This document shows positions 16,839 through 57,575 of a DNA stretch of 64,000 bases, in pieces. Position 1 is the stretch's first letter, and each line of letters opens with the position of its first letter. Origin of the DNA: a virus; IMG/VR virus record IMGVR_UViG_3300043411_001314, positions 1-64,000 of that record. One strand, written 5' to 3'. Made by a program: the position numbers and the translations under genes. The notes beneath the pieces are model-generated. The model made no database searches. It worked only from the letters and a program-made list of their open reading frames with translations, and was not told where the DNA came from.

Positions 16839-16866
16839 TGAACGCCCCCCCGTCAGCTGCCGATGA
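16839..16866 (+). promoter_or_regulatory. sigma28/WhiG-type late promoter
   Basis: TGAA-N16-GCCGATGA upstream of 16918. Confidence 0.75.
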
Positions 16867-16917
16867 ATGGTCAGGAACTGGCGCAGCCGATGCTGCCCTG
16901 ACAGATCGGAGAAGTTC

Positions 16918-17343
16918 ATGTCCTACACTGGTCAGATCGCCCCTGATGGCAGACGGTACGCCGATGGTGACCCCGCCACCCCCACGGTGACCCCGACCCC
17001 GGCCGGCAAGATGGTCACCCACGGTTCGTTCGATGCGGTCACCGCCGACCTCGGCGACCTGGACGGCCTCCTGGTCCGCATCGCCCTCGACGCCGTCGTC
17101 ACCGCCACGGATGCCACGGTGACCTCGGCTACCGCTGCGTTCTCGTCGGCCGATGTGGGCGCTGAGATCTCCGGCGTGGGCATCCCTGCCAACGCGACCA
17201 TCGCCAGCGTCACCAACGCCACCACCATCGAGCTGTCGGCCGTGGCCACCGCCTCGGGTACTGGCGTGGACATCACCATCACCCGGAATCTCGCCGACGT
17301 GGTGGCCGACCACACCACCCGCATCGAGGTCCTCGAGCCCTGA
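16918..17343 (+). CDS. putative virion (tail-associated) protein
   Basis: T/A/S-rich beta module also inserted in the tail tube protein; GGAG RBS. Confidence 0.7.
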   Translation: MSYTGQIAPDGRRYADGDPATPTVTPTPAGKMVTHGSFDAVTADLGDLDGLLVRIALDAVVTATDATVTSATAAFSSADVGAEISGVGIPANATIASVTNATTIELSAVATASGTGVDITITRNLADVVADHTTRIEVLEP

Positions 17344-17406
17344 GCCTGGGCCTGGCGCCGCCAAGGCTCCTACCTGGGGCGTGGGTGTCCTGTGGCTGAG
17401 CTGCCA

Positions 17407-17442
17407 CGAAACAGCCCCCTGCTTCGGCCGGGGGCTGTTTCG
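17407..17442. terminator. intrinsic terminator-like hairpin
   Basis: CGAAACAGCCCCC-loop-GGGGGCTGTTTCG. Confidence 0.65.
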
Positions 17443-17448
17443 CGCAAG

Positions 17449-17477
17449 TGAACGCCCTCGCTGCGATCTGCCGATAG
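17449..17477 (+). promoter_or_regulatory. sigma28/WhiG-type late promoter (leaderless)
   Basis: TGAA-N17-GCCGATAG, GTG start 7 nt downstream. Confidence 0.7.
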
Positions 17478-17484
17478 GGGGAAT

Positions 17485-18933
17485 GTGGAGATTGAGCTGA
17501 CGACCCAAATCGGTGCCGACGGGATCCGCTACACCACCGGGGAGCAGCCCACTGACCCGGCGCCCTACCGGCGAGACCAGCCGACCCAAGCCGACCTGGC
17601 CACCCCGGACCTGCCGGGCGGCGTCGGGTTTCGCTCTGGTCTCAACGTGTGGAAGGCCAAGGTTCAGGCGGCTACCTCCGCATCCCCCGTGGATGTGGTG
17701 GTGATCCATGACTCCCTGTGGGACATCGGTGACGCCTCAACGCCGTCGGCTGCCCAGATGCTGCACCGAGCGCTCAACGCCGCCGCCGGTGTCTACGGCG
17801 CCGACCCGATCGGCACATCCACGCTGCCGCTGCCGGTGCACGGTCACCCGGGGGCGGGGACTGGGTCCACCTCATCGCAGGGTGTGGTGGCCACTACCGC
17901 CACAGGCAAGCAGGGTTCGACGCTCAGCAACGGGAACGTCCTCACCCACGTCGCCACCGCCACCGGGTTCAGCGTCCTATACCGCACTGACCCCACCTAC
18001 GGCTCCATGACGATTCGGGACGGCGCCGGGGGCACCGTCCTCGCCACGATCGACTGCGCGGCGACCGCCAAGTCCGGCCGCCTCTGGACCTCCGGCGCCC
18101 TGTCGGATGCCTCCCACACCCTGCACATCACGTCGACCGGCACCACCCGTGTCGAGATGGTCATGCCGACCCGTTCCACCAAGGTCCGCACCTGGCCCGC
18201 CGGGTGGGGCGGCGCCACCACCGACGACTTCATGGACAACGCGGACCGGGCGCTCGACCTCATCGACACCTTGGAGACGGCCGGGACGCTCGGTCTGGTG
18301 ATCGTCGCCATGGGGACCAATGACGACGGCGAGCCGTCGGATGTGTCCACCCTGGTTGACCTAGTCCGCACCCACACGACTGCTGACGTGGTGCTCTGGT
18401 TGCCGTACATGTCTGGGGCATTCGGCCAGGCTGAGTATGACGCGATGATCCCCTACGCCCGCGCCGCCGACGCCGTGCTCGTGGACGCCTCGGTGGTCGC
18501 AGATCAGATCGTCACGGTCGACGGCACTCACCCGGGCGGGGCCGGGCGGGCTGTCATGGCCGCCCACCTCGCGGCGGTCCTGTCCGGCGACCCGATCGGT
18601 GCTGCGATCCGCCTCGGAGCAGCCGTCGCCTCCGGGCGCGGGGCGACCACCACCCGGATGGAGGAGACGGGCCTCAACATCTCGGGTGACTCGTACATGC
18701 TGCGGACCGCTGCCGCCACGTTCGGGTTTGGGTCCGGGCTCTCCCTCCTGTTCGGGACCCCCGACGGCACCCTCCGGGCGTCTGCCCTTCAGGGCACCGA
18801 GAAGGCATCTGACCCTGCCGCTCCCGCCGCCAACACCGGGATCCTCTACTTCCGGGACAACGGGTCCGGCAAGACCCAGCTCTGCGTTCGCTTCGCCACC
18901 GGTGCCATCCAAGTCGTCGCCACTCAGCCCTGA
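17485..18933 (+). CDS. tail fibre/spike with SGNH/GDSL esterase-like domain
   Basis: VVIHDS (block I variant), GWGG, MGTND (block III), DGTHP (block V); C-terminal tail-fibre-like LYFRDNGSGKTQLCVRF. Confidence 0.75.
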   Translation: MEIELTTQIGADGIRYTTGEQPTDPAPYRRDQPTQADLATPDLPGGVGFRSGLNVWKAKVQAATSASPVDVVVIHDSLWDIGDASTPSAAQMLHRALNAAAGVYGADPIGTSTLPLPVHGHPGAGTGSTSSQGVVATTATGKQGSTLSNGNVLTHVATATGFSVLYRTDPTYGSMTIRDGAGGTVLATIDCAATAKSGRLWTSGALSDASHTLHITSTGTTRVEMVMPTRSTKVRTWPAGWGGATTDDFMDNADRALDLIDTLETAGTLGLVIVAMGTNDDGEPSDVSTLVDLVRTHTTADVVLWLPYMSGAFGQAEYDAMIPYARAADAVLVDASVVADQIVTVDGTHPGGAGRAVMAAHLAAVLSGDPIGAAIRLGAAVASGRGATTTRMEETGLNISGDSYMLRTAAATFGFGSGLSLLFGTPDGTLRASALQGTEKASDPAAPAANTGILYFRDNGSGKTQLCVRFATGAIQVVATQP

Positions 18934-18961
18934 GTGCCCAACCCCGAAGGAACCGACCGAC

Positions 18962-21040: not shown

Positions 21041-21420
21041 GCTACCAGGGAACGCAGATCGGTCCTGACGGCAAGCGCCGCCCCACTGGAGAGCCGGATC
21101 CGTTCGTGTCCGGCGTCGAGTTGCCGGTGGTCGAGGACGATGTCGTCGACCTCGCCGTCGCCTTCACCCCGCCGGAGTTCCTCGAGCTCCTCGGCCAGGA
21201 GCCGGCGCCCGAGCCCGAGCCGGAGCCGGAGCCGGAGGTCGCGCCGGAGCCGGCGCCCGATCCCGAGCCCGAGGTCGCTGCCGAAGCTGAGCCGGAGCCC
21301 GAGGTCACTGCCGAAGCTGAGCCGGAGCCCGAGGTCGCGCCGGAGCCCGGCGAGGTCTCCGCCCCGGACTACAGCGACTACGACCTCGTCGACGACGATG
21401 ACGACGACGACGAGGTCTGA
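21037..21420 (+). CDS. acidic Pro/Glu-repeat protein
   Basis: [15 protein letters not shown] then EPEPEV repeats and poly-Asp tail. Confidence 0.65.
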
Positions 21421-22163
21421 TCCCACTGCTCCATGAGCCGGCGGATCTCAACGACTGCCTGCGTGTGGAGCTTGGAGACGGTTCCGGCTGAGATGCCCAT
21501 GAGCTTGCCGATGTCCAACATCCGCATGGCTTTGAAGTAGTAGAGGCCGAACACGATCCGGGCGGGCCCGTCGATCTGGCGCACAGCGTCGGCGACGGCC
21601 GCCCGGAACTCGGCCGTGTCGATCAGGTCGTCCCCCGTCTGCCCGATGGACGACCGATCAGGCTTGGCCTCGGCCAGCAGAGGGAGATCGTGGATGTCGA
21701 CCGAGAAGGACGTCTCGGCTGCCGATCGTCGCAGGCGGTCAGCCTCCTCCACACTCACCTGCAGGTGGCCGGCCACCTCCATCAGGGTTGGCGTCCGGCC
21801 GAGCTTGTGGGTCAACCACTCCTCGGCGTGCTGGAGACGCCTGGCCTCATCGAAGACGGAGCGCGGGAGCGTCCCCTGCTGCCGGCCAGCGTCGTGGATC
21901 GCTCCCTTGATCCGACGCTGGGCGTAGGTCTCGAACTTGGCGCCCATGGCCGGGTCATACCGCTCGATGGCGTCGATGAGGCCGAACTGGCCGCTGGCCT
22001 TGGCGTCGTCGAGTCGGTCCCAGTCCCGGCTGTAGCTGGACTGGATGTGCCCCTTCGCCACCGTCTCAACCAGCGGCTGGTAGTGCACAACGAGGGCGTC
22101 TCGCTCGGCTCGCCCCCTGTTGGCGTGCCAGGCTTCCCACAGCTCCTCGATGGTCCGCTTCAC
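21378..22163 (-). CDS. RNA polymerase sigma factor, FliA/WhiG (sigma28) family
   Basis: ELW...[12 protein letters not shown]; [31 protein letters not shown] (region 2); [11 protein letters not shown] (region 3); [26 protein letters not shown] (region 4 HTH). Confidence 0.93.
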
Positions 22164-22351
22164 CGTCGCTCCAGGAGCTCGGCGAGGCTGGCGGCCTCGA
22201 TGCGTTGGTCGGCGCCGATCTCCTGGCAGGAGGCGTAGTGCCGTAGTGCCTGCACCACCATGGCGCGGCCGTTGCTGTCGAGTCGCCCCCGAGGCTTGCG
22301 CGGCCGGCCCTCCCGGTTGCTGATGTGCTCCATCAGGTTGATGACGTCCAC
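22160..22351 (-). CDS. small hypothetical protein between terminase and sigma factor
   Basis: GGAAGGA RBS, GTGA overlap with sigma start. Confidence 0.6.
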   Translation of the reverse strand: MDVINLMEHISNREGRPRKPRGRLDSNGRAMVVQALRHYASCQEIGADQRIEAASLAELLERR

Positions 22352-22365: not shown

Positions 22366-25320
22366 CTAGAGACCGAACCGGGCGATGACGGGCCCGGACG
22401 GCTTGCGTGCTTCAGCGAACATCGCCTCGATGGGCTGTTGGGCCCACCCGAGGGCGAACATGCGGCAACCATCCAAGATGTGGAAGGTGCCGATCGACCA
22501 GACGGATCGCCGGCGGCCGTACTTGTCGACGGGCTCCCTCGAGGAGGTCCACGTCTGGCCGTTCATCTGGTCGATCACCTCGTGGTCGTACGGGATCTTC
22601 AGCCGGCGCGTGTCCACCAAGTCGCGCAGCACGTCGGTGCTTGCGTCCTTGGCATGCTGGCGGATCGAGGCTTTCTCCAGGATGTCGCCGGGGTCGGACA
22701 GGTGGAGGTCGTCCACCATCTTCTCGTCGATCCCGATCACGACCTTCTCGGAGAAGTTGTAGCCCTTGATGACCGTGAGGGCGTCGCCGGCGGCGGAGGC
22801 CGCTGCAGCGTTGCGGGGATCGTCGGCCTCTTCGGCGATCACGAACCGGGCCGAGCCGGCCAGCTGCTGGATGTTCTGGAGGAGGCCGTGGCCAACGCCG
22901 GTGCGGTCCAGGGTGAAGGCCCGTGGCTTGTAGATGTTGATCAGGTGCATCACCACCCTCGCCTGGAGTGGGAGCGGGATCTGCTCGAGTCGGATCCTGG
23001 AGACGAGCTTGAACCGAGTCATCCCAGCGTCCGGGACAGCAATGTTGGCTCGGCGGTCGCGTTGTCGCTCCGCCTTGTCGGGGACGTACTCAGCCCACAC
23101 CACGATCTCAGTGGGGTCGGACACGACGCCGATGTCGGCACCCATCCAGAACACCGAGTGCATGGAGGTGTGCATCGTCGGTGGCTGGATCATCTGGGCC
23201 AGGACGTCGGCCATCTCCTCGGTCGACGCGTCGAGCTCCGAAACACCCTTGTCGGCGAGCCGGCCGATCACGTGGTCCGCCGAGATGTGGGTCTTGTAGT
23301 ACTCGTTGGTGTTGTAGTCCGAAGCCTCCATGACGTCACAGCCGGCCATGAGTCGGGTGAGTACGAAGATCCGGTTGGAGCTCGCCCCGGGCATGCCGTA
23401 GACGTTGCGGAGGAAGTCTGGGGAGCGGTCCGATCCGCCGTACTGCTTCACCTTGTCCGCCCTCTCTTCCTTCGACCAGCCCTCACGGTGGAGGCCGGTG
23501 ATGTTGAACACCTTGAAGCCTGAGTCGGGCCTCGAGTACTTGTCGAACGAGTCGCCCTGGATCCCCTTCGACACGCCGTGGATCTTCCACTTGTTGCCGG
23601 GGACGTCGTTGCGCACGATCTCGGGCATCTCCCGCCACGCCTGCTCGGACATGTCCTGAGCCTCATCGACGTGCAGGATGACGGGGTGGGTGCCCTTCAG
23701 GCCGATGCCTGACCGCTGGGGGAGGCGGGCGTACACCCGGGCCCCGTTCTGGAAGGTGGCCACGAACGGCTTGTGCTTGATGCCCGACCGGTTCCTCACC
23801 AGCATCTCCCGCAGGAGCCTGGTGCTGTTGATCCGGGCCTCAATGCGGTCCGTGAGGGACTCGACGTGCTGGCCCTCGGGGGCGGTGATCAGGAACTCTT
23901 GATCCGGGAAGTTGAAGGGGAACTGGCAGGCGTCGGCCATCACGGATTCCGATTTGCCGACCGACCTGGCGGAGGCGTCCATGGTGCGGGACTCCCGCTC
24001 GCGCCACCACGCCCATTGGGATGGCTGGGCCCGGTAGCAGTTGTCGCTCTTGTTGGGGTCCTTCCAGCAGTTGTGAACCGTGATGCCCTCAACGACGAAG
24101 CTGTGGTCTTCTTCGACGGATATATCCCACACATACTGCGCCCCGAAATCGGCAATCTCCTTGACCGCCGTCCACGCATGCCCCTCACCAGTGAACGTCT
24201 TCCCTAGACCTGTCTCGGATGTGACCTTCCAGTACGGGAGGCCCGGTGTGCCGAAGGATGAGGTGTACTCGCCGTAGTGGGTCATGCTGGCCGAGCGGCC
24301 CAGCGATGTGGCGAGGGAGCGCACCCCGAATGCAAGCTGACGGGACGTCGAGCTGTAGCAGCTGCCGCCAGTCGGAGTCGGGGTGCCGTCTCCGGCTGAT
24401 AGTCCATCGAAAAGAGCCTCGCGGCCCTCCGTTGGCAGTCCGAGAACCCAAGCTGGCAGCCGCTTATTACTAGACCTTCTCCCACCCTCGGCGGCGAGCC
24501 ACGAGGCCAGCTGCTGGGAATACACGGCAACGCGGTCGATGTTGTCGGAGCAGTTGTTCCCGTTGGTCACGCTATGGCGAAGGTTGAGGTTGTCGAGTCG
24601 ATCGGTCACTTCGTGGAGCACCCTCGGGTTGACGCTCCATGTAATCGAATAGCCAGCCCGATTGTCGCTGACGTTCCCCTCGGATAGCCAATGCCCAAAC
24701 AGCCAAAGCCAGTCAGGCTCCCATGGCCCGAAGGCGACCCGTAGCTTACCCACCTCAGGGAAAGGGGTAATCGGGAGGGGCTCGGCCTTCGACGGGCTAC
24801 CCCACCACCAGGATCTGTATTTGCCACCCCTGTAAGTCAAGTCCTTGAAGTCTTGGGGGGCGCGCCACTCCGCCGGCTCCAGTACCGAGTTGCGGTGTCC
24901 GTCGCCCCGTTCCGTGCCGCGTCGCGCCCGCCTCACCAACAGCTGGTGGTCCGGGGTTACCACGAGACCAGGATGCCCCTGCCCCCTTACGGTGACGACT
25001 TCCCTAACGCCGCGGTCGTAGACGGCCGACACCGGACGCCACCGGTTTTTGTGAGTGAGAACCAGCTGCCCGACGCGTACGTCTTGTATCGGGATCCACC
25101 CATCTCCAGTAATGACCAGCTGTCCCCCGCCGATGCAAAACTCAGCCTGGTCCAGCCCTGAGTGGTCCTGGAGGAGGACGGCGAGGTACTTCTCTTCCTC
25201 GGTGAGCGGCTCGACGGCGCGCGGGAGCTCGACGTCGAGCGGCTCGGGGTCGACGAGACCTTCCCACTCATCGGGCCGGTCGGTCTTCCTCCGGGTCGAC
25301 AGGTCGAGGGCGACGCTCAC
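22366..25320 (-). CDS. terL: terminase large subunit containing an intein
   Basis: Walker A SARSVGKS, Walker B ILHVDEAQ, nuclease MGADIG, LDRTGVG, HILDGCR. Confidence 0.88.
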   Translation of the reverse strand: MSVALDLSTRRKTDRPDEWEGLVDPEPLDVELPRAVEPLTEEEKYLAVLLQDHSGLDQAEFCIGGGQLVITGDGWIPIQDVRVGQLVLTHKNRWRPVSAVYDRGVREVVTVRGQGHPGLVVTPDHQLLVRRARRGTERGDGHRNSVLEPAEWRAPQDFKDLTYRGGKYRSWWWGSPSKAEPLPITPFPEVGKLRVAFGPWEPDWLWLFGHWLSEGNVSDNRAGYSITWSVNPRVLHEVTDRLDNLNLRHSVTNGNNCSDNIDRVAVYSQQLASWLAAEGGRRSSNKRLPAWVLGLPTEGREALFDGLSAGDGTPTPTGGSCYSSTSRQLAFGVRSLATSLGRSASMTHYGEYTSSFGTPGLPYWKVTSETGLGKTFTGEGHAWTAVKEIADFGAQYVWDISVEEDHSFVVEGITVHNCWKDPNKSDNCYRAQPSQWAWWRERESRTMDASARSVGKSESVMADACQFPFNFPDQEFLITAPEGQHVESLTDRIEARINSTRLLREMLVRNRSGIKHKPFVATFQNGARVYARLPQRSGIGLKGTHPVILHVDEAQDMSEQAWREMPEIVRNDVPGNKWKIHGVSKGIQGDSFDKYSRPDSGFKVFNITGLHREGWSKEERADKVKQYGGSDRSPDFLRNVYGMPGASSNRIFVLTRLMAGCDVMEASDYNTNEYYKTHISADHVIGRLADKGVSELDASTEEMADVLAQMIQPPTMHTSMHSVFWMGADIGVVSDPTEIVVWAEYVPDKAERQRDRRANIAVPDAGMTRFKLVSRIRLEQIPLPLQARVVMHLINIYKPRAFTLDRTGVGHGLLQNIQQLAGSARFVIAEEADDPRNAAAASAAGDALTVIKGYNFSEKVVIGIDEKMVDDLHLSDPGDILEKASIRQHAKDASTDVLRDLVDTRRLKIPYDHEVIDQMNGQTWTSSREPVDKYGRRRSVWSIGTFHILDGCRMFALGWAQQPIEAMFAEARKPSGPVIARFGL
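24070..25137 (-). mobile_element. intein (356 aa) with LAGLIDADG homing endonuclease
   Basis: starts CIGGGQLV..DG.IPIQDV, block B TPDH, LFGHWLSEG and LFDGLSAGDG, ends VWDISVEEDHSFVVEGITVHN followed by Cys. Confidence 0.93.
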
Positions 25321-33085: not shown

Positions 33086-34179
33086 CAGCTGGCCTTTCGG
33101 GTGTCAGGTTCTTCGGCAGAATCGCTCTCGGCGTTCACCGCTGAGCGTCGAAGTGTTGGTTTTGCTGGGGTTTCCGATCGCATGGCCTCGAGTCGGGCCT
33201 GGGTTTCTTCTTCGAGCTGGCGGGCCTGAGCCCGGGCCGCGGCGACGGCCGCGGGGTCGCCTGCCGAGCCGGGCGGCGGGGGCGGCGGGTCCCACCAGCG
33301 GGCCACGATCTCGTCATCGCTGAGGCCCGTGGCCAGGCTGGCAGCGATCCGCTGCCGGTCTGCGTGGCGGTCGGCGTCCTGGAGAATCCTCCGGGTGACC
33401 CCGGCTGCGTAGGAGCCGTGGTCGTCGGGTGCGTCCCGGTCCGCTGCGGCCAGCCCGATGCGTCGGGCGACCCGCCGAAGATTCTGATCAGGATTTCCCA
33501 TGCCACCCGGTTGAGGATCCGGGCCGGCGGGTTGTAGGTAGTCCTGAGACTTGGTGGGAGTGTTAGAGGGTGGAGGGTGGAGGGTGGAGGTACGCGTTAG
33601 CAACCCTTCCCCAAGGGGTTCCGTAAACCCTTCCTGGAAGGGTTCCGTAAGGGGTTCTGGGAACCCTTCCCCAAGGGGTTCCGTCGATCCGGCAAAGCCC
33701 TGGTCAGGGGCAACTTCCGGCATCCCGGCGAGAAGTGTCTTGATGGCTGTCGGGTGCATGGACACGATTTTGTCCGGGAAATACCCCCGAAGCTGTGCCG
33801 GCAGCTCCCTCAGGATGGCTTCCTTGACCGTTTCGGAGTGGATCGCGCCGAACTGACGGGCGGCTGACTTCAAGATGTTGGGCGATTTCAGGATCCCGTC
33901 GTGGCGCATGAAGGTGCGGATCAGCACCTCGTCGGTGTCCTCATCGAAGACCAGGAACCCGCGGTCGTGGAGCCCGATCACCAAGTCCTCGACCTGGGTC
34001 CGGGAGATGCCCTCGGCGAAGCGGGCCCACATCTTGGGGCGGTGCGCGATCACGCCACAGGAGTTCAGGTCCTGCTGGGAGAGTAGGAGCAGGTACATCC
34101 ACTGAGCCTTCGGGTTCAGCGCGTTGAAGTCAGGGTCCTGCCAGATGGCCGAGAGGATCGTGGCGTGGTTCCGTGCCAC
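33085..34179 (-). CDS. replication initiator protein
   Basis: MARNHATI..IWQDPDF..L...AQWMYLLLLSQ..LNSCGV N-terminal wHTH typical of actinophage initiators; internal iteron-like repeats. Confidence 0.75.
   Translation of the reverse strand: MARNHATILSAIWQDPDFNALNPKAQWMYLLLLSQQDLNSCGVIAHRPKMWARFAEGISRTQVEDLVIGLHDRGFLVFDEDTDEVLIRTFMRHDGILKSPNILKSAARQFGAIHSETVKEAILRELPAQLRGYFPDKIVSMHPTAIKTLLAGMPEVAPDQGFAGSTEPLGEGFPEPLTEPFQEGFTEPLGEGLLTRTSTLHPPPSNTPTKSQDYLQPAGPDPQPGGMGNPDQNLRRVARRIGLAAADRDAPDDHGSYAAGVTRRILQDADRHADRQRIAASLATGLSDDEIVARWWDPPPPPPGSAGDPAAVAAARAQARQLEEETQARLEAMRSETPAKPTLRRSAVNAESDSAEEPDTRKAS
33602..33684. repeat. palindromic iteron-like repeats, candidate replication origin
   Basis: AACCCTTCCCCAAGGGGTTCCGT twice, AACCCTTCCTGGAAGGGTTCCGT once, plus a half site. 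Confidence 0.7.
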
Positions 34180-34310: not shown

Positions 34311-34339
34311 TGAATCACTACCCCTTCACCTGCCGAAGT
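34311..34339 (+). promoter_or_regulatory. sigma28/WhiG-type late promoter (leaderless)
   Basis: TGAA-N17-GCCGAAGT, in-frame GTG 6 nt downstream (34346). Confidence 0.65.
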
Positions 34340-48826: not shown

Positions 48827-48993
48827 CCCGTCAGACGTGGTGCCTCGCAGCACTCGCAGCGATGGCGGCGGCCGGGTGCTGGCACGCCGGCCGCACCGGT
48901 GAGGCCGTGTGGTCGGCGCTGTTCGGCCTGCTCGGCGGCGGGTTCCTGTTTCTGATCGGTTGGACATGGCATGACGAAGGAGTGAGCGAGTGA
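48823..48993 (+). CDS. small membrane protein (TRQTWCLAALA family)
   Basis: two TMs; ATGA-coupled. Confidence 0.6.
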   Translation: MTRQTWCLAALAAMAAAGCWHAGRTGEAVWSALFGLLGGGFLFLIGWTWHDEGVSE

Positions 48994-49689: not shown

Positions 49690-49736
49690 CCCGCCAGGCG
49701 TGGTGTCTGGCGGTGCTCGCGGTCGCGGCAGCGGCC

Positions 49737-49764
49737 TTGACCCGATCGGGTGGGGTGATACTGT
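49737..49764 (+). promoter_or_regulatory. sigmaA-type promoter with extended -10
   Basis: TTGACC-N16-TACTGT preceded by TGA. Confidence 0.6.
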
Positions 49765-49795
49765 ATCAGTAGCCCCGATCTCGACAGGAGACAGA

Positions 49796-50398: not shown

Positions 50399-50799
50399 AG
50401 AAGCTCGTCCTCATCCTCGCGGCCCTGGCGCTGTCCGTTCTGGCCTGCACGCCGTCCGCCGAGGTGATCGAACGCGACGCCGTCGACCGCATCGCTGACG
50501 CCCTCGACATCACCGACCTGAAGTGCGAGGAGGTCCGCGCTCACCCCAACCAGGAGAACGTGTGGATCCTCTACTGCGACAAGTCCGGGCCCGGCGCCCC
50601 GAGCTCCGACTGGGCCCTCGTCGACGCAGCGGTGCGCTACTCCGGCTCCAACGCCACGGCAACCTCCTCCGCCACGTTCGAGTCCGCCGGCTACGTGGTG
50701 ACCTACAAGCAGACCTGCAAGTGGGTCAGCCGCAACAACAACTGGACCGTCTCGTCCTGCACCGCCCCGCTCCGCACGTCGTCCTTCCCGCTCGGATGA
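50395..50799 (+). CDS. lipoprotein
   Basis: MKKLVLILAALALSVLAC lipobox; four further Cys. Confidence 0.75.
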   Translation: MKKLVLILAALALSVLACTPSAEVIERDAVDRIADALDITDLKCEEVRAHPNQENVWILYCDKSGPGAPSSDWALVDAAVRYSGSNATATSSATFESAGYVVTYKQTCKWVSRNNNWTVSSCTAPLRTSSFPLG

Positions 50800-50836
50800 G
50801 CGACGCCCCCAACCCCAACCCTGAGAAGGAATAGCT

Positions 50837-51295
50837 ATGGACAACACCGTGACCCTCGTGGGCAACGCAACCAGGGAGCCAGAAGTTCGCTACACCCCCA
50901 GCGGACAGACCGTGGTCACCTTCGGCCTGGCGGTCAATCGCCGCTGGCAGAACAAGACCACCAACGAATGGGAGGAGCAGGTCTCCTTCTTCGACGTCAA
51001 GTGCTGGGGTCAGATGGGCGAGAACGTCGCCGAGTCGGTGCCCCGCGGTACCCGCGTCGTCGTCACCGGTCGCCTCGAGCAGCGCTCGTGGGAGTCCGAC
51101 GCTGGCGAGAAGCGCTCCAAGGTGGAGGTGGTGGCCGATGAGGTCGCCCCCAGCCTCCGCTGGGCCACCGCCCAAGTGCAGAAGATCGAGCGCCAGGGGT
51201 CCGGTGGTTCGGGTGGCGCTGGCTACCAGGCGCAGGCGGGGGGCGGGGGTCGCCAGGCCCCGGTCGACAACTACGGGGACGAGGAGCCGTTCTGA
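50837..51295 (+). CDS. ssb: single-stranded DNA-binding protein
   Basis: TLVGN.TREPE.RYTPSG, GRLEQRSWE, acidic DEEPF tail. Confidence 0.97.
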   Translation: MDNTVTLVGNATREPEVRYTPSGQTVVTFGLAVNRRWQNKTTNEWEEQVSFFDVKCWGQMGENVAESVPRGTRVVVTGRLEQRSWESDAGEKRSKVEVVADEVAPSLRWATAQVQKIERQGSGGSGGAGYQAQAGGGGRQAPVDNYGDEEPF

Positions 51296-51296
51296 T

Positions 51297-51524
51297 ATGT
51301 CGGACCTGATGGAGTGTCCCGACGTCCGCACGACGGACCACGAGGACAACGACGGGTGCGCCCATGTGGTGGTGCCGGCCTCGGCCGTCACCGAGGCGTA
51401 CATCACCGGCGCCCCGGTGACCGCCCTGTGCGGGAAGACGTGGGTCCCGAGCAGGGACCCCAACAGGTACCCGATGTGCCAGACCTGCAAGGAACGGCTT
51501 GAGTCCTTCAGGGCGCCCACGTAG
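51297..51524 (+). CDS. DUF3039-family protein
   Basis: AH.V....VTEAYITG.PV.ALCGKTWVPSRDP..YP.C..CKE. Confidence 0.85.
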   Translation: MSDLMECPDVRTTDHEDNDGCAHVVVPASAVTEAYITGAPVTALCGKTWVPSRDPNRYPMCQTCKERLESFRAPT

Positions 51525-51555
51525 ACTGGCCGTCATTGACAGTGCGGTGCAACCC

Positions 51556-51591
51556 AAGAAGGCCCCCCCGCTCCGGCGGGGGGGCCTTCTT
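51556..51591. terminator. intrinsic terminator
   Basis: AAGAAGGCCCCCCCGC-TCCG-GCGGGGGGGCCTTCTT. Confidence 0.85.
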
Positions 51592-51603
51592 GTCGTTGGT
51601 GAG

Positions 51604-51631
51604 TGAATGAGACTTTCGGTGCCTCCGATAA
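51604..51631 (+). promoter_or_regulatory. sigma28/WhiG-type late promoter (leaderless)
   Basis: TGAA-N16-TCCGATAA, GTG 7 nt downstream. Confidence 0.75.
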
Positions 51632-51638
51632 CTGAATC

Positions 51639-52343
51639 GTGGATGTTTCACCAGAAGCGAAGCGGGTCGCACACGACCTTCTGATTGACCTGACGGGTGA
51701 TCATCCAGCCGATTGCGTCATCTGCGCGACGGCCAACCACGATCTAGGAGACGCCCACGTGGCCGAGATCACCGAAGCTGACGTCACCGCCGCGGTGGCC
51801 AAGGCCGTAGCAGACAAGGAAGCCGAGTTCCAGGCGCAGATCTCCGATCTCCAAGCCAAGCTCGACTCCCGCGAGACCGAGTCCAAGGTTGCCGACCTTC
51901 AACGGCAGCTTGACGCCGAGGCGATCGCCCGCAAGGCCGCCGAGGATCAGCTCAACGACACCGTCGCCTTCCTGAGCGCCGAGCATGTCCGCCTCGAGGA
52001 TGAGGCTCGCATCGAGGCCGCCAAGGCCGAGCGTGTCCAGGCCGTCCGCGACCTGGACCTCTTCCCCGAGGATCAGCTCGAGGGTCGCATCGAGGCGAAC
52101 GCCGACCGCTGGGCGGCCATGGACGCCGACCAGTGGGGTGAGCAGCTCGCCGACTACCAGGCCGTGAAGGCCCGGATCGTCGACGCCCTGGGCGCCTCCC
52201 ACAACCCCGTCGGTGACGCCAAGGAGCCCGGGCAGTCCGCCCTCGGCGGCGCCGGCGTGAAGGACTCCAAGGACGACGGGGACTCCCGGAGCCTGGTGAC
52301 CGACATCATGTCCGACCGCTACGCCATCACCGGCAGAATCTGA
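51639..52343 (+). CDS. capsid scaffolding protein
   Basis: acidic coiled coil upstream of capsid genes. Confidence 0.7.
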   Translation: MDVSPEAKRVAHDLLIDLTGDHPADCVICATANHDLGDAHVAEITEADVTAAVAKAVADKEAEFQAQISDLQAKLDSRETESKVADLQRQLDAEAIARKAAEDQLNDTVAFLSAEHVRLEDEARIEAAKAERVQAVRDLDLFPEDQLEGRIEANADRWAAMDADQWGEQLADYQAVKARIVDALGASHNPVGDAKEPGQSALGGAGVKDSKDDGDSRSLVTDIMSDRYAITGRI

Positions 52344-52356
52344 AAGGCCAAGTTCG

Positions 52357-52917
52357 ATGAGCTCCCTTGGACGCAACTTCTCGTTCCTCCAGTCGCCGCT
52401 GCCCGAGCACCGTCTCGGCCGGTACAAGACTGGCGCAACCGTCTTCCCGCAGGGCGCGCCCGTGGTCGCCACCGGCGCCATGGACACCGCCGACAAGCGT
52501 CGCACCGTGGCCCTGGCTGCGGCTGACGCTGACGTCGCCACCGTCACCGGTGGCCTCGGCGGCATCCTCGTGTGGGATGAGGCATGGACCAACTTCCACG
52601 GCTACGACCCGGTGCTGACCACGGCTTCGGACATCGACACCGTTCCCACCTACACGCCCGCTCAGGTCGTGCACGGCACCGAGGTCCGGGTCCAGTTCCG
52701 CAACACCATCGACCGATCGTTCCTGGGCCTCCGGGACTACGACGGCCGGACCATCATCAACCTCACCAGCATGGTGCTCGGTGACTACCTCACGCCCGGT
52801 GCCGGCGACGACACCAACGGCTACTGGAAGCGGACCACCACCGCCGGTGATGGTTGGCTTCGTGTTACCGCAATCGACACCACCAACGGGCTCGTCGAAG
52901 CCCAGATGCTCTTCTGA
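52357..52917 (+). CDS. head decoration / minor capsid protein
   Basis: beta-rich, between scaffold and major capsid. Confidence 0.6.
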   Translation: MSSLGRNFSFLQSPLPEHRLGRYKTGATVFPQGAPVVATGAMDTADKRRTVALAAADADVATVTGGLGGILVWDEAWTNFHGYDPVLTTASDIDTVPTYTPAQVVHGTEVRVQFRNTIDRSFLGLRDYDGRTIINLTSMVLGDYLTPGAGDDTNGYWKRTTTAGDGWLRVTAIDTTNGLVEAQMLF

Positions 52918-52931
52918 GAGGGGAGAACACA

Positions 52932-53867
52932 ATGGGCAGCATCCGACAGATCGGATACAAGGATTTCGGCGGCAAGAACGCCGAACTCGCGCAGAAGATT
53001 GCGATCCTGGACGCCGAGGCTCGCGAGAACTGGTACAACGACGAGTGGCGTGCCGAGCACATCCACGACGTCCAGACCACCATCTTCGAGGGCTTCACCC
53101 ACGAGAGCCTCCTGGGCCTCATGTCGACGGTCGAGACCGTCGACGAGGGCGAGCGCATCGTCATCGAAGAGGTCCGGGGCCTGAAGGTCTGGTTCGTGTC
53201 CGCTGGTGGTCAGATCGACGAGTCGACCATCACCAGCGAGTCGGCCGAGCTTCGCCGGGACTTCGTGGGCTACCACGTCAACGAGCGCACCGAGAAGATC
53301 CGCTCCGGGTTCTCCCGGCAGATGGCGACCATGGCGACGCTGGCGATCAGCCAGATGGACGCCGCCATCAACCAGCGTCTCCTCGGGGCCTTCCAGGCCG
53401 CGATCGACAACGCCTCGCCGTACTACATCAGCGGCGCCGGTCTCTCCCTGCCGGCACTGAACACCGCCATCACCGAGGTCGTCGATGAGACCCTCGATGG
53501 TCCGGTGACGGTCGTCGGCCGTGGCACCATGGTCGACCAGATCGTGAACGAACTCCAAGACCTGAACGGGTTCACCCCCGCCAGCAACGAGGAGATCCTT
53601 CGCACCGGCCGGCTCGGTGAGTACCGGGGCACCAACATCGTCCGCCTGAAGAACCACAAGGATGCCGACGGCAACTCCTTCTTCCCGGACAACGAGATGT
53701 TCGTGCTCGGGGCCGACGCCTCGAAGACGGGCTTCTGGGGTGGCATGCACTCCGCCGAGTGGACCACCCCCGAGGGCTTCTACACCAACATCCTCGGCGT
53801 GCGCACCTTCGGGTGTGCGGTCCACCACCCGGAGCGTGCTCGCCGGATCGTGGACACCTCGCTCTGA
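52932..53867 (+). CDS. major capsid protein (HK97-like, putative)
   Basis: 311 aa, GGGAG RBS, GRLGEYRGTNIV P-domain-like motif, followed by terminator. Confidence 0.8.
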   Translation: MGSIRQIGYKDFGGKNAELAQKIAILDAEARENWYNDEWRAEHIHDVQTTIFEGFTHESLLGLMSTVETVDEGERIVIEEVRGLKVWFVSAGGQIDESTITSESAELRRDFVGYHVNERTEKIRSGFSRQMATMATLAISQMDAAINQRLLGAFQAAIDNASPYYISGAGLSLPALNTAITEVVDETLDGPVTVVGRGTMVDQIVNELQDLNGFTPASNEEILRTGRLGEYRGTNIVRLKNHKDADGNSFFPDNEMFVLGADASKTGFWGGMHSAEWTTPEGFYTNILGVRTFGCAVHHPERARRIVDTSL

Positions 53868-53890
53868 TCCCTCCCGGTCACGAGTGATGC

Positions 53891-53920
53891 AGAGGCCGGG
53901 CCTTCGGGGCCCGGCCTCTT
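53891..53920 (+). terminator. intrinsic terminator
   Basis: AGAGGCCGGGCC-TTCGG-GGCCCGGCCTCTT. Confidence 0.8.
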
Positions 53921-53927
53921 CGCGTTG

Positions 53928-53955
53928 CGAATGACTGGATCGGATGGGCCGATAA
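53928..53955 (+). promoter_or_regulatory. sigma28/WhiG-type late promoter
   Basis: CGAA-N16-GCCGATAA just after the capsid terminator. Confidence 0.75.
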
Positions 53956-54002
53956 CAGTTCGTAGACGCCGCGCCCCAGCGGCGTGATGGAAGGATGGAA
54001 TC

Positions 54003-54554
54003 ATGACTGTGGAACTGGAAACCTGGGTGAACGAGACCCGAGCGACGTGGCTGGTCAATCGGCTGAACCCCGATGGCACCACCCGCCAGGAGATGGTGCG
54101 TGGCAACGCCACGGTGATGCTCACCCCCCAGGAGCGTGAGCTCAACCAGTCGAACGCCAAGCCGGCGCTGGACCCGTTCCTGAACGGCACGTTCACCTGC
54201 CTCGCCGGCGACTCGGCACCGGAGAGCTCCAACCGCCTCACCGACGACGACATCGAGGAGCTCCTCTCGGGACACTGGAAGCGTGCGGCCAAGCGCCTCG
54301 AGGAGATCACCTCCGAGGCCGCCCTCACCCGTGTGCTCAACGTCGCCCTGGAGTCCGGCGCCGGCGCCAAGCGCATCGAGATGGTCCGCGACCGGATCCT
54401 GGAGATCAACCCCCGACGGGTGTTCCCCACCCAGTCCCGCTCGATCTCGCCGCAGTCTGAGCTGCAGGGCGTGGCCAAGCCGACCGACCTGATCCCCGAG
54501 CCCCCGAAGACGAACTTCCAGGAGCTCGCCGGCAACCTGATGGCGAACCTGTGA
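54003..54554 (+). CDS. head-associated hypothetical protein
   Basis: position in the structural block; GGA RBS. Confidence 0.65.
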   Translation: MTVELETWVNETRATWLVNRLNPDGTTRQEMVRGNATVMLTPQERELNQSNAKPALDPFLNGTFTCLAGDSAPESSNRLTDDDIEELLSGHWKRAAKRLEEITSEAALTRVLNVALESGAGAKRIEMVRDRILEINPRRVFPTQSRSISPQSELQGVAKPTDLIPEPPKTNFQELAGNLMANL

Positions 54555-54587
54555 TGAGTGTCCCAGGGTTTGGAACGGAGATGTCCA

Positions 54588-55079
54588 GTGGAGATTGAGC
54601 TCCTCGTACCCAATCTGAAGAACTCCCTGAACGCCCCAGGCGAGGCGCTCTTCCAGGCGTCCGACAGTGAGTGGGTCGGGGCTCTGTCCAACGCGTTCTG
54701 GTGGGGCCGCATGAAGGGCTTCTTCACCGACTGGCGCACCGACACCGACGGCGAGAACATCGTCCCGGTGGTCGACGGCGGTGAAGAGATCCCGATGGAG
54801 CTCGCCCAGATCGTGGTGGCCATCGCCTCCCTCAACGCGCTCGAGGCCAAGCTCCTGTCCATGGAGACCAAGACCGTGGCCAAGGCCGGCCCCGTCGAGT
54901 ACGAGACCGGTCGGTCGGCCCAGGTGCTCACCGAGCTCCTCAAGCAGAAGCGCCGCGAGTTCGACGAGCTCAAGGCCGAGCTCGTCGGCTCCCGCTTCGC
55001 CATCTACGGCGGCATCATCGACATGGTGCTGAGCCGTGAAGGTGCCTACATGTCCGGCTACGCCTCCTTCGTGAACTGA
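54588..55079 (+). CDS. head-tail adaptor (putative)
   Basis: AKAGPVEYE beta hairpin, synteny. Confidence 0.6.
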   Translation: MEIELLVPNLKNSLNAPGEALFQASDSEWVGALSNAFWWGRMKGFFTDWRTDTDGENIVPVVDGGEEIPMELAQIVVAIASLNALEAKLLSMETKTVAKAGPVEYETGRSAQVLTELLKQKRREFDELKAELVGSRFAIYGGIIDMVLSREGAYMSGYASFVN

Positions 55080-55540
55080 TGGCCGGCGCCGACCCGAGGG
55101 GGTCCTTCAGCGGCGACGTGTTCAGGACGGCGATCCGTGCCGCCATGTCCATGGGGTCCCCGACGGTCGTCGAGGACCGAGCCACCTTCCACTTCGCCGA
55201 CGGCCGCACCTTCACCGTCGCCGATGACGCCGGCGACCCCTACGACTGGACTCTGGCCCCGGACGGCGGCCTGGCCGCCCGCGCCTCAGTGCAGGTGCTG
55301 TGCGCCATCGACACCAAGTCGGCCGTAGGTGCTCGAGGTCAGCCCCGTACGCCGGTCGGCGAGTTCGACGAGGACACAGCCACCCTCTACCTGTTCGAGG
55401 ACGAGTGGGCCCTAGTCTCCGACTTCACGTCAGTGGACCTGGGCGGCTCGACCTACGTCCGCATCAAGCGGCTCATCCCGCTTGGGCTCTTCGATGTTCA
55501 GGTGGAGCAGGTGCACGTCCGGGCGGTGGACGAGTCGTGA
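55079..55540 (+). CDS. head-tail stopper (putative)
   Basis: DDAGDPY, beta-rich, synteny. Confidence 0.55.
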   Translation: MAGADPRGSFSGDVFRTAIRAAMSMGSPTVVEDRATFHFADGRTFTVADDAGDPYDWTLAPDGGLAARASVQVLCAIDTKSAVGARGQPRTPVGEFDEDTATLYLFEDEWALVSDFTSVDLGGSTYVRIKRLIPLGLFDVQVEQVHVRAVDES

Positions 55541-56055
55541 GCACCTTCGAAGGTGGCCTCCTCGACCGGGTGGTGTTCGACTCGTTCGTGCACATGATCC
55601 GTGACTCCCTCAACCAGCTCGGCTGGTTCGACGTCGTGGACTCGGGGCGGACGCCCATCACCCTGATCACCACACCCGTGTCGCTCCATGACGAGATCCA
55701 GCCGAACACCATCGCCATCCAGTTCGAGGACCAGTTCGACGAGCCGGCCGAGATCGGCTCCAACCTGACGTTCGACAACACCATGGCCTGGGTGGAGATC
55801 TACCCGGAGTCCATGGCCATCGGGCGCCACATCGCCGGCGACGTGCGGGACATCCTGCGAGGCAAGATGCCGTCGATCGACCGGACGGACCCGAGCTTCG
55901 AGGTCCTCGACTTCCCTAGCGGCGTCGATCCGCCGGCAGTGCTCTTCCTGGCCGACATCTCCAAGGTGGAGGTCCATCGCGACCGGGAGCCCACCACCAC
56001 GGCAGGCCGGTTCTGGTTCGCTGTATCAGCGATTCTTGAGGAGGAGAGACCATGA
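55537..56055 (+). CDS. tail terminator (putative)
   Basis: P.TIAI...EIGS...WVEIY..S..GR.IAGDVRDIL, synteny. Confidence 0.6.
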   Translation: MSTFEGGLLDRVVFDSFVHMIRDSLNQLGWFDVVDSGRTPITLITTPVSLHDEIQPNTIAIQFEDQFDEPAEIGSNLTFDNTMAWVEIYPESMAIGRHIAGDVRDILRGKMPSIDRTDPSFEVLDFPSGVDPPAVLFLADISKVEVHRDREPTTTAGRFWFAVSAILEEERP

Positions 56056-56309
56056 CGGCGTTGGAGGATGTGACCGAGCTGGTTCGCCGACACCAGAAGC
56101 GGTGCGCCCGCACCATCCTGGAGGCCAAGGACGCCGGCGCCACCGACGACGTCCTGCGCAAGGTGGTGCTCGACGCCATCGGCGACTTCGCCGACCTCGT
56201 GGTGTCCGTGTTGCCATCAGTCACCCGCGAGGACATCATGCTGAACGGGTACGCACTGGAACTGCTCGAGCAGATCCACACCTCAGTGGGCGCGGCAGCG
56301 GAGTCCTGA
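56052..56309 (+). CDS. hypothetical protein
   Basis: GAGGAG RBS, coupled. Confidence 0.6.
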   Translation: MTALEDVTELVRRHQKRCARTILEAKDAGATDDVLRKVVLDAIGDFADLVVSVLPSVTREDIMLNGYALELLEQIHTSVGAAAES

Positions 56310-57250
56310 TGGCGAAGAAGGTGGCCCTCTCCAAGGGTCAGTTTCACGATCTCGTCCCCTTCGCGTCCGCCGCCCTCAACGACATAGCGGTACAGGGGTC
56401 CGGGTTCGCCGGATCACTCATCGCCACAGCGGTAGCGGAGACGGTCGACCAGTCGACCAGGGCGGTGGCCAAGCAGCTGGCCGAGGTGGCTCGCGTCATC
56501 AGTGAGGGCCTGGAGCCGGAGGAGTTCCGTAAGGCCCACCAACGGATCGGCGAGGCCGCCCAGAGGTCCGTGGTCGCCTCCTACAACGCCTCGAGGAACG
56601 GCCAGACGCGAGGCGCTTCCGGCTACCGCTCCGATGAGCGCTACTCCGGTGGCAAGCTGCTCGGCGCCTTGAACAGCCCGGACTTCTTCCGCGCCACAGC
56701 GGCGGGCCTGGAGTTCATCAACGTCGGCATGCTCAACGACCAGGCCGCCCAGTGGGCGCGCCTCAACTTCGGCGCCCAGCCCCGGGGCCGCGGTTCACGA
56801 CGTCAGTTCAGCGTGCAGGTCGGCCAGATGATCCTGGCGACCATCGGGTTCAACGAACCAGCGCGGCCCGGGTTCCTGCTGCCGAAGGGCTACTTCTGGA
56901 AGGACGGTCAGCCCGTCCGCCCAGGCCCCCCCACACCTGGGACGGAGTTCTACCTCGCCGGTACTGGTCCCCGGAAGGGGAAGGACCGGGTTCGGGGTGC
57001 CGCCGACGGCGAACGTGGCAGCTTCAACGCCATGGTCGGCCCGAAGCGTTCCCTCGGCATCGAGGCCCGGAACTTCCTGGATGCCGGCCTCTATACCATC
57101 GCTCATGAGATCGGCCCTGCCTACATCAAGATCGTCAACGACATGTACCGTCGCGGCGAGTCGACTGTTCGTCCGGCGCCCATCACCTTCAAGGTGCACA
57201 CGAATGCGACGTTCCGACGTTCGTCGACTTCAGGCTTGAAGTGGGACTGA
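56309..57250 (+). CDS. neck/tail completion protein (HK97 gp10-like, putative)
   Basis: WARLNFG...GIEARNFLDAG. Confidence 0.55.
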   Translation: MAKKVALSKGQFHDLVPFASAALNDIAVQGSGFAGSLIATAVAETVDQSTRAVAKQLAEVARVISEGLEPEEFRKAHQRIGEAAQRSVVASYNASRNGQTRGASGYRSDERYSGGKLLGALNSPDFFRATAAGLEFINVGMLNDQAAQWARLNFGAQPRGRGSRRQFSVQVGQMILATIGFNEPARPGFLLPKGYFWKDGQPVRPGPPTPGTEFYLAGTGPRKGKDRVRGAADGERGSFNAMVGPKRSLGIEARNFLDAGLYTIAHEIGPAYIKIVNDMYRRGESTVRPAPITFKVHTNATFRRSSTSGLKWD

Positions 57251-57253
57251 TCC

Positions 57254-57282
57254 TTGACTCACCACTGGGTGGTCTGTAGGAT
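57254..57282 (+). promoter_or_regulatory. sigmaA-type promoter for the tRNA pair
   Basis: TTGACT-N17-TAGGAT. Confidence 0.75.
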
Positions 57283-57370
57283 TTCAACCGTGCGCACCAC
57301 CCTGCTCCCACCCGTCCCGCGATGGCGGGGCTGACGGCCTGATTGGTCGGTCACACCCCGCGCGAGTCTC

Positions 57371-57444
57371 CGGGGTGTGGTGTAGTGGTAGCACGGGTAG
57401 TTTGGGACTATCTGGTGGGGGTTCGATTCCCTCCACCCCGACCA
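57371..57444 (+). tRNA. tRNA-Pro(TGG)
   Basis: CGGGGTG/CACCCCG acceptor, GGTAG-TTTGGGA-CTATC anticodon arm, TTCGATT T-loop, A73, encoded CCA. Confidence 0.92.
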
Positions 57445-57463
57445 GCAGGCTTCATCCATTCCT

Positions 57464-57537
57464 ACGGGTGTAGCTCAGTGGTAGAGCAGCGGCTTCCAAT
57501 CCCGCCGGCGAGGGTTCGACTCCTTCCACCCGTGCCA
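57464..57537 (+). tRNA. tRNA-Trp(CCA) with C31-C39 mismatch (alternative register Gly-TCC)
   Basis: A1-T72, G73 discriminator, GCGGC-TTCCAAT-CCCGC arm, TTCGACT T-loop, encoded CCA. Confidence 0.8.
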
Positions 57538-57546
57538 CGCAGGCGC

Positions 57547-57575
57547 TGAATGAACCCCCCTCCAGGGGCCGATGA
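57547..57575 (+). promoter_or_regulatory. sigma28/WhiG-type late promoter
   Basis: TGAA-N17-GCCGATGA upstream of the tail tube gene. Confidence 0.75.

Follow-up and report, generated by a model that had tools for sequence, protein, structure and literature searches.

How a tailed phage could switch on together virion genes that lie in separate blocks and on both strands is the question raised by a 64,000-base stretch of DNA (the window), which forms the start of the 117,502-base linear virus record IMGVR_UViG_3300043411_001314. An initial annotation had proposed that a phage-encoded sigma factor of the WhiG/FliA type, the product of the gene here called g48, reads a set of sigma28-type promoters placed ahead of the virion-gene blocks. 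As judged from sequence, the phage probably activates its late genes through a sigma factor of this kind, borrowed and in part rewired. The record is an uncultured high-GC tailed phage, actinophage-like, with a GC content of 64-71% throughout (66% for the genome) and a completeness of ~80% according to CheckV; near-identical DNA occurs in freshwater, wastewater, activated-sludge and runoff metagenomes (14 runs), one of which may have yielded the record itself. A self-trained codon-usage model called 213 genes that cover 93% of the genome, and since this gene calling is a heuristic of our own, the start codons are provisional.

The gene g48 (21378..22163, minus strand) encodes a protein of 261 aa from a GTG start, with Pfam matches to Sigma70_r2 (24-97), r3 (107-152) and r4 (202-241). 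This corresponds to the FliA/WhiG architecture, with sigma2, sigma3 and sigma4 domains in ~240-280 aa and no region 1.1 or 1.2. The top NCBIfam models were WhiG (NF004935, 156.4 bits for a cut-off of 343) and FliA_WhiG (TIGR02479, 139.6 bits for a cut-off of 189.6), and g48 was the only sigma factor of the genome picked up by TIGR02479. Since these models are the best ones and the scores stay under their cut-offs, the protein is WhiG/FliA-like but below the curated thresholds, in such a way that its initial assignment to the FliA/WhiG group holds for regions 2, 3 and 4 and for the top family and structure matches, and falls short at both family cut-offs. The best solved-structure match was 6pfv/6pfj (E 1e-33), labelled only "RNA polymerase sigma factor" in the file, with FliA chains coming next; we take 6pfv/6pfj to be the Streptomyces WhiG, from the RsiG-WhiG complex.

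Among the 120 matches listed from 5.8 billion clustered proteins, the sole close ones to g48 were P0003 (78% identical) and P0004 (53%). The others listed showed 32-39% identity, and those with a name were WhiG or FliA from Actinomycetota. We conclude that g48 descends from the actinobacterial WhiG/FliA (sigma28) family and is a group-3 sigma factor. Two homologues, 258 and 261 aa long, share its start position and thereby back it; a 364-aa reading from an upstream ATG was discarded, as it adds an Arg/Pro/Ser-rich stretch without counterpart in any homologue. The protein ends with a run of eight serines (21378-21420), which is also present in the 78% homologue, and the 3' end of the gene overlaps the convergent gene g47 by 43 nt.

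The putative targets of this protein are six sites that share TGAAYS-N14/15-GCCGAT[AG][AG], all of them facing a gene whose start codon (the called start, or the alternative GTG at 51639) is found 7-51 nt downstream. P1 (16839..16866, plus strand) reads gTGAACG-N14-GCCGATGA and lies 51 nt ahead of the ATG of g40 (16918-17343). Directly before P2 (17449..17477, plus; gTGAACG-N15-GCCGATAG) there is a terminator-like hairpin (17402..17446, plus; -32.5 kcal/mol, z -4.5), and after 7 nt comes the GTG of g41 (17485-18933). On the opposite strand, P3 (46296..46323, minus; gTGAATC-N14-GCCGATAA) is located 34 nt ahead of g85, with which the fibre block g85-g79 (41844-46261, minus) opens, and overlaps the end of g86, in such a way that the TAA of the box is the g86 stop codon. 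P4 (51604..51631, plus; gTGAATG-N14-TCCGATAA) is also preceded by a terminator-like hairpin (51555..51592, plus; -44.3 kcal/mol, z -7.6) and followed after 7 nt by the GTG at 51639. A third hairpin (53886..53926, plus; -33.0 kcal/mol, z -5.1) separates the capsid gene from P5 (53928..53955, plus; gCGAATG-N14-GCCGATAA), which lies 47 nt ahead of g102 and heads the block g102-g107 (54003-57250). Finally, P6 (57547..57575, plus; cTGAATG-N15-GCCGATGA) comes just after the tRNA-Pro and tRNA-Trp genes and 41 nt ahead of g108 (57617-59014). The motif coordinates of the initial annotation were all correct, and its claim that three copies sit just after terminators was borne out by hairpins whose ends lie 2-12 nt upstream of the boxes at 17449, 51604 and 53928, with z values of -4.5 to -7.6. 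Because of their 18-nt spacer, two further sites, at 40081 and 16864, were excluded from the count.

In a genome so rich in GC, these sites could have arisen as chance matches; GCCGA-type words are common in coding DNA, and 54 of the 62 octamers within one mismatch of GCCGATAA lie in genes. A position weight matrix (PWM) was used to scan the whole 117.5-kb genome (234,924 positions). With the full six-site PWM the six sites scored 22-27 bits, and the next best site 19.0; when the matrix was built from five sites and applied to the sixth, each site ranked 5th to 7th of the 234,924. The fixed patterns GAAY-N15-KCCGATRR and GAAY-N16-KCCGATRR gave 4 and 2 matches, for 0.12 expected each (~0.24 in total). 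These matches are exactly the six sites, and none was found inside unrelated coding DNA. Among shuffled sequences, 0 of 100 reached 4 matches of the N15 pattern and 1 of 100 reached 2 matches of the N16 pattern. Since the six sites are moreover all upstream of a gene in the right orientation, and the motif is kept at the three places that can be compared in a related contig (see below), we regard chance as an extremely improbable origin. A looser pattern, TGAA-N15-18-GCCGA, gave 13 matches for 1.87 expected, including matches in coding regions that are probably due to chance.

The positions of the sites were also compared with gene function. All six of the top PWM sites precede virion-type blocks or their candidates (g40, g41, fibre, capsid, head-tail and tail). 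By contrast, no strong PWM site was found at 64-117.5 kb (53 kb of mostly minus-strand replication-type genes), and no motif of the six-site class lies ahead of the SSB, methylase or RecET/DnaB blocks. A consensus shared before virion genes and absent before replication genes is what a phage late sigma factor would be expected to show, with two caveats: g40 and g41 have no family, and a site of 19 bits is found at g69. This last candidate, not listed initially (33110..33137, minus; GTGAACG-N14-GCCGAAGA; 19.0 bits, 7th genome-wide), falls within the replication-initiator gene g70, at its 3' end, and precedes the small open reading frame (ORF) g69 by 24 nt. A weaker site also precedes the putative portal gene g71 (to 36250): it reads TGAATC-N15-GCCGAAGT (34311..34339, plus), is followed after 6 nt by an in-frame GTG at 34346, and scores 12.8 bits (rank 11 in the full-model list). 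Both the g69 and the portal site carry a GCCGAAG variant of the -10 box, resembling the box GCCGAACT given for WhiG1 (PMC12871210).

The geometry of the boxes was compared with published sigma28-type promoters. In the Pseudomonas aeruginosa sigma28 open complex, GCCGATAA spans positions -15 to -8, and therefore +1 is eight nt after the box (PMC12784957). Placed on the window, this rule puts the predicted +1 exactly at the G of the GTG codons at 17485 and 51639, and one nt away from the GTG at 34346, which falls short of it. The distances of 7, 6 and 7 nt to the GTG codons at 17485, 34346 and 51639 agree with the 6-7 nt noted initially, and with a GTG at the predicted +1 a leaderless mRNA is therefore expected. 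The start at 51639 has weak support over the called start at 51759: its 234-aa product is in register with a 235-aa protein (E 0.008) of the phage Caudovirales GX15bay (MK557849, from mangrove soil). P5 and P6 share, 3-5 nt after the -10 box and around the predicted transcript start, a GTTCGTA word (53956-53975 and 57576-57600).

The actinobacterial consensus sequences, as given in the WhiG study, are T(A/C)AA-N16-GCCGATAA for WhiG2 and CTCA-N16-17-GCCGAACT for WhiG1 (PMC12871210). The six phage sites contain [GT]CCGAT[AG][AG] 16-17 nt after TGAA or CGAA, in such a way that both the -10 box of the family and its published N16 or N16-17 spacing (PMC12871210) are found. The -35 box is different, being TGAA in five of the six sites and CGAA in the other, never TAAA or the T(A/C)AA of that consensus. 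Overall, it is quite likely that the boxes are sigma28-type promoters.

To see how g48 would read such promoters, the protein was aligned to the P. aeruginosa sigma28 chain and to 117 cellular WhiG-like matches. The structural description lists Y76, R80, D87 and R104 as -10 contact residues (PMC12784957), and g48 has the same residues at the equivalent positions (Y80, R84, D91 and R108). The three phage-clade sigma factors, g48 among them, retain the Y, R and D without exception, as do 116-117 of the 117 cellular homologues, and the R104 equivalent is R, K and R in the phage trio and is kept in 102 of the 117. For the -35 box, the same source describes base-specific contacts by S224 and Q228 of the region 4.2 helix (PMC12784957). 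At this helix all 117 cellular homologues have E-S-R-x-x-Q, and the three phage-clade proteins have A/T-G-T-V-S-K (S-A-G-T-V-S-K-L-H in g48), so that four -35-helix residues invariant in cellular WhiG are replaced in g48. Since the -10 contacts are kept and the -35 helix is replaced, the promoter expected for g48 has a canonical -10 box and a non-canonical TGAA -35 box, and we infer that the combination present at the six sites is the one that this protein would read. The initial description of g48 as a "captured" sigma28 is correct in that a WhiG/FliA-type factor is borne by the phage, although rewired relative is the better term, given scores below the family cut-offs, a replaced helix and a -35 box that is TGAA and not T(A/C)AA.

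A replaced helix is not restricted to the trio. The phage-clade trio was pooled with 149 representatives (50% identity), and of these 152 sequences 96 had the ESRQ helix. A FastTree phylogeny of 151 of them, one fragment being dropped, grouped the trio with a support of 0.996 and placed it within a larger clade of 12-15 members, itself supported at 0.92-0.94; the sequences that depart from ESRQ group with the phage clade. These 12-15 members are metagenomic sigma factors from contigs of up to 118.6 kb and, with the exception of P0177, have non-canonical helices at the contact positions. They may represent a wider, undescribed family of phage sigma28 derivatives, each with a -35 code of its own.

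Comparable boxes were found in relatives of the window. The closest comparison is with L002, 18.3 kb of a 28.5-kb metagenome contig that carries the large terminase gene terL (85% identical), g49, the sigma gene (53%), homologues of g40 and g41, and the fibre block. A box is present at all three of the orthologous places covered: TAAACG-N14-GTCGATAT before the g40 homologue (the place of P1); a hairpin, TGAACC-N14-GCCGATTA, 7 nt and a GTG before the g41 homologue (the place of P2); and TGAATC-N14-GTCGATAT before the g85 homologue (the place of P3). The last two are the best PWM matches of L002 (16.8 and 13.5 bits), with scores below those of the window's own sites. The sigma gene is also carried by the contig L003 (53% identical) and by L084 (30%), a 48-kb IMG/VR contig with the same structural module as the window. 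At the portal-block place, L084 has TGAG-N16-GCCGATTC followed by 6 nt and an ATG, and GX15bay has TGAT-N16-GCCGATGA followed by 7 nt and the annotated ATG, so that both starts would be leaderless; these boxes at the same place raise our trust in the weak 34311 site. The PWM found no site above 15.3 bits at the capsid and tail intergenic regions of GX15bay; boxes GTCGATGA and CTCGATAA seen by eye near two of its starts are unconfirmed leads and were not used.

The conservation of spacing bears on the idea that the motif is not a promoter at all and is instead the site of another phage regulator, or a sequence otherwise conserved near terminators, with the sigma factor using other promoters. 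The definition of the motif rests on six sites, and the -10 consensus by itself is not enriched, both of which would fit that idea. Against it, the motif consists of two boxes at a fixed spacing of 14-15 nt, in each case ahead of a gene and on its coding strand, and the distance from the box to the GTG or ATG is the one that the sigma28 geometry predicts (PMC12784957), in the window as well as in L002, L084 and GX15bay; in addition, the -10 box is the consensus of the family of the co-encoded sigma factor. With this balance, we consider a non-promoter role improbable.

A more serious possibility is that the boxes are real sigma28-type promoters read by a WhiG or FliA of the host, the phage protein being redundant or, say, redirecting host genes. 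The -10 box and the spacer do match the actinobacterial WhiG consensus (PMC12871210). Furthermore, GX15bay shares the structural module and the portal-block box and has no sigma gene in its 52-kb record, so that a host sigma factor could read such promoters; that record ends inside a gene, however, and may be incomplete. Other data point to the phage protein: the -35 box is TGAA or CGAA in the six sites and not T(A/C)AA, g48 differs from all 117 cellular homologues exactly at the -35-contacting helix, and the sigma gene and the motif occur together in L002. Moreover, the host may have no WhiG, and in Streptomyces, WhiG is kept inactive during growth by RsiG and c-di-GMP (PMC12871210). A host sigma factor as the reader of the boxes is thus unlikely in our opinion, and there is a reasonable probability that the phage sigma factor is the one that reads them.

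Several observations nevertheless weigh against the proposal that g48 drives the virion genes from these sites. Both the PWM and the fixed patterns were derived from the same six sites, chosen after seeing them. A dyad scan of noncoding DNA ranked GAAT..CCGAT 4th, TGAA..GCCGA 8th and another word of the motif 20th among the dyads seen at least 4 times, a result without significance once 262,144 dyads are corrected for. The -10 octamer GCCGATAA alone (up to one mismatch) was not enriched in noncoding DNA (8/62, p = 0.087), and the signal thus lies in the combination of the two boxes. The search rule given in the WhiG study, with a -35 box of exactly T(A/C)AA, would call none of the six sites (PMC12871210). 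As for the protein, g48 scores below both curated family cut-offs, although WhiG and FliA_WhiG are its top-ranked models, and the equivalent of P. aeruginosa D93 is G in the phage clade and D in the 117 cellular homologues. Neither g40 nor g41 has a family match in Pfam or PHROGs, the 19-bit site at 33137 (minus) faces non-structural genes (small ORFs and a methyltransferase), and GX15bay has a sigma28-like box with no sigma gene in its 52-kb record. Four RNA runs from three studies (X15-X18), compared with 45000-64000, gave 72-167 short low-depth contigs each, many of them fitting partly, which cannot show 5' ends. Lastly, because the genome is ~80% complete, part of the regulon may be unseen.

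With these points taken into account, a phage group-3 sigma factor that drives late virion-gene promoters appears as the best overall explanation, and one to which we give fairly good odds. We infer that the sites are promoters, that the phage and not the host sigma factor reads them, and that both their late timing and the altered specificity follow the scheme below. The phage sigma factor would join the host core RNA polymerase and recognise six or more promoters, perhaps eight, with the consensus TGAAYS-N14/15-GCCGAT[AG][AG]. These would head the g40 and g41 units and the tail-fibre, scaffold/capsid, head-tail and tail blocks, and the weaker GCCGAAGT variant would probably head the portal block. 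Strong upstream hairpins would insulate three of the promoters from read-through. Leaderless mRNAs would result from two promoters and, roughly, from the weak portal site, where the transcript would start at or next to a GTG. Because the contact residues are conserved, the -10 box would be read as in sigma28, and because the -35 box differs from that of cellular WhiG and the region 4.2 helix is replaced, the sigma/promoter pair may be partly insulated from the WhiG regulon of the host.

What the genes behind the sites encode agrees in most cases with a virion regulon. The fibre block behind P3 contains a fibre-like protein (Pfam Gp80) and tail or tail-fibre PHROG matches. After P4 come a coiled-coil scaffold-like ORF (51639-52343), g100 and the major capsid protein g101 (52932-53867; 47% identical to that of GX15bay), and after P5 the six head-tail genes g102-g107, syntenic with GX15bay. 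P6 is followed by the tail block, which extends to ~72.9 kb and includes a tape measure protein of 1819 aa. The blocks free of the motif are non-structural, with methyltransferases, a replication initiator, a phosphoesterase, RecE, RecT, DnaB, SSB and an HNH/transposase-like protein. The initial statement that the motif precedes each structural block except that of the terminase stands for the capsid, neck, tail and fibre blocks and for g40/g41, with no strong site at terL-sigma, and has to be qualified for the portal block, whose site at 34311 has a low score. For g40 and g41, the initial names "tail protein" and "tail spike/lysis" are unconfirmed: Pfam and PHROGs gave nothing, and the Atlas search gave, as a lead only, a match to SGNH hydrolases (0.87), some of which are tailspikes.

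For g41 and g71, searches of Pfam, PHROGs and PDB sequences gave nothing useful. In the case of g71 the Atlas search pointed to a portal protein (0.92-0.93), also as a lead only. An identification of g71 with the "portal" ORF of GX15bay was rejected, since the two show no similarity and g71 matches the neighbouring ORF annotated as "PhoH". It is g72 (36243-37892, plus) that is the homologue of the GX15bay "portal protein" ORF, and it has a C-terminal 2'-5' RNA ligase (2H phosphoesterase) domain; both the "PhoH" and the "portal" annotations of GX15bay look misassigned. Directly after the portal/MuF-like genes, at 38151-41841 (plus), lie genes for a RecE-like exonuclease, a RecT-like annealing protein and a DnaB-like helicase, which part them from the other virion genes.

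The dispersal of the virion genes noted initially was confirmed by comparison with the relatives. The terL, portal-like, capsid and tail proteins of the window have homologues in GX15bay (25-47% identity), and both in GX15bay and in L084 the genes for terL, portal, capsid and tail are contiguous in a single block, whereas the genome studied here has them in five blocks, distributed over both strands. The initial view that the sigma factor makes this scattering possible is an evolutionary proposal. The arrangement suggests how a phage can afford scattered virion genes, through a cassette of terminator and promoter for each block and one factor common to all. The sigma factor of L084 has the helix N-G-S-K-V-C-A, unlike the A/T-G-T-V-S-K of the window's clade. 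In the gap after the L084 sigma gene (3700-4020) there are four copies of AAA[TC]GGAC[AG]TT, a different and unexplained repeat.

The sigma gene itself belongs to a unit without strong motif sites. The terL gene (22366..25320, minus) lies directly upstream of it in the same direction, with g49 (22160..22351, minus; 63 aa, no Pfam match) between them, and this order terL-g49-sigma is kept in L002 and L003. As would be expected for a phage late sigma factor, the gene is borne by the phage and lies outside its own regulon, the only box nearby being a weak one at 28565 (minus), ahead of the terL block. This box, ACAA-N16-GCCGAATA, was already described as weaker in the initial annotation (28565-28538, minus); it is indeed present, although it has a poor -35 box and its TAA doubles as the stop codon of the upstream ORF. 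An extended -10 sequence, TG-n-TACGGT, was read by eye in the 28453-28536 gap and is unverified. Since the box is weak and an extended -10 is seen upstream, the terL-g49-sigma unit, in which the sigma gene is the last one, is probably read by the housekeeping sigma factor of the host. When 16-35 kb was scanned for consensus sigma70 promoters and for terminators, the promoters numbered 0 and the terminators were as frequent as expected by chance, such a scan being unsuited to this GC content. Within terL there is an intein of ~360 residues (about aa 58-418) that resembles inteins in methylase and helicase genes of mycobacteriophages and other phages; the terL genes of L002 and L003 (85-87% identical) lack it.

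Compared with actinobacterial WhiG, g48 has the same sigma2-sigma3-sigma4 organization without region 1, the same -10 contacts, the GCCGAT[AG][AG] -10 box and the 16-17 nt spacer. The differences are its identity of 32-39% (120 proteins listed), with scores below the cut-offs, the A-G-T-V-S-K helix, the Asp to Gly change at P. aeruginosa D93 and the TGAA -35 box. Furthermore, it is encoded by a phage beside the terminase gene, and its predicted targets are virion genes, versus the sporulation and motility genes of WhiG.

Middle and late sigma factors of phages are well known, such as gp28 and gp33/34 of Bacillus phage SPO1, gp55 of T4 and gp36 of phiEco32. They follow the same logic, in which a sigma factor from an earlier unit redirects the host core polymerase to a phage consensus before the virion genes, but are highly diverged or belong to other sigma70 subgroups, whereas g48 is a recognisable WhiG/FliA derivative that keeps the -10 box of the family. 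The SigF/SigG-like sigma factors of Bacillus phages (for instance the "sporulation sigma factor SigF-like" protein of phages B4 and B5S) are also group-3 homologues, although of a different subfamily, with ~24% identity over ~77% of g48; interest in them has centred on the modulation of host sporulation and not on the reading of a defined set of phage late promoters. A tblastn search of g48 against 50,697 phage records matched 34 of them; the 30 listed were all below 30% identity, and no actinobacteriophage isolate was among the matches. Full-text literature searches returned no report of a phage WhiG-type sigma factor, and the word "phage" is absent from the WhiG preprint. A phage late sigma factor is thus of a known kind, and a recognisable WhiG/FliA derivative in a high-GC actinophage-like virus is new within the phage database and the literature searched.

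A more detailed history can be proposed tentatively, and we hold it to be somewhat less probable than its opposite. An uncultured actinophage-like lineage would have taken up a WhiG-type sigma factor and rewired its -35 helix from E-S-R-x-x-Q to A/T-G-T-V-S-K while keeping the -10 reading head, and its promoters would have co-evolved to TGAAYS-N14/15-GCCGATAA. The result would be a private pair without cross-talk to the host WhiG regulon or to c-di-GMP/RsiG control, with leaderless GUG-start mRNAs that begin at exactly +1, and it would have let the virion module break into five blocks. The small, readable set of promoters and the four replaced residues of the -35 helix make a natural experiment on how sigma28 factors read the -35 box, and if the pair is orthogonal to host sigma factors, it could be used as a compact switch of gene expression in actinobacteria.

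Regarding the origin of the record, no close isolate was found in a phage nucleotide search. The sole nucleotide match to any isolate phage was a 140-nt stretch of the tail protein gene g82 (44013-44152), with 82-84% DNA identity to minor tail genes of the Gordonia phages Phauci and Ali17, which is too short for naming a host. In IMG/VR, no close relatives were retrieved with the single-protein sigma query, the capsid query or alignment A1, and the search of species genomes with alignment A1 gave no relatives and consequently no prophage copy or host hint.

Other features were observed along the genome. The tRNA-Pro(tgg) and tRNA-Trp(cca) genes lie at 57371-57537 (plus), between the head-tail block and the tail promoter, and ahead of the pair a TTGACT-N18-TAGGAT box was read by eye and is unverified. 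Several gaps within 73-113 kb have a tRNA-like appearance. Outside the window, the region 114285-114683 is a noncoding stretch of 399 nt with five copies of a CAAACGATA[CT]G-type word, which may be an origin or an operator array.

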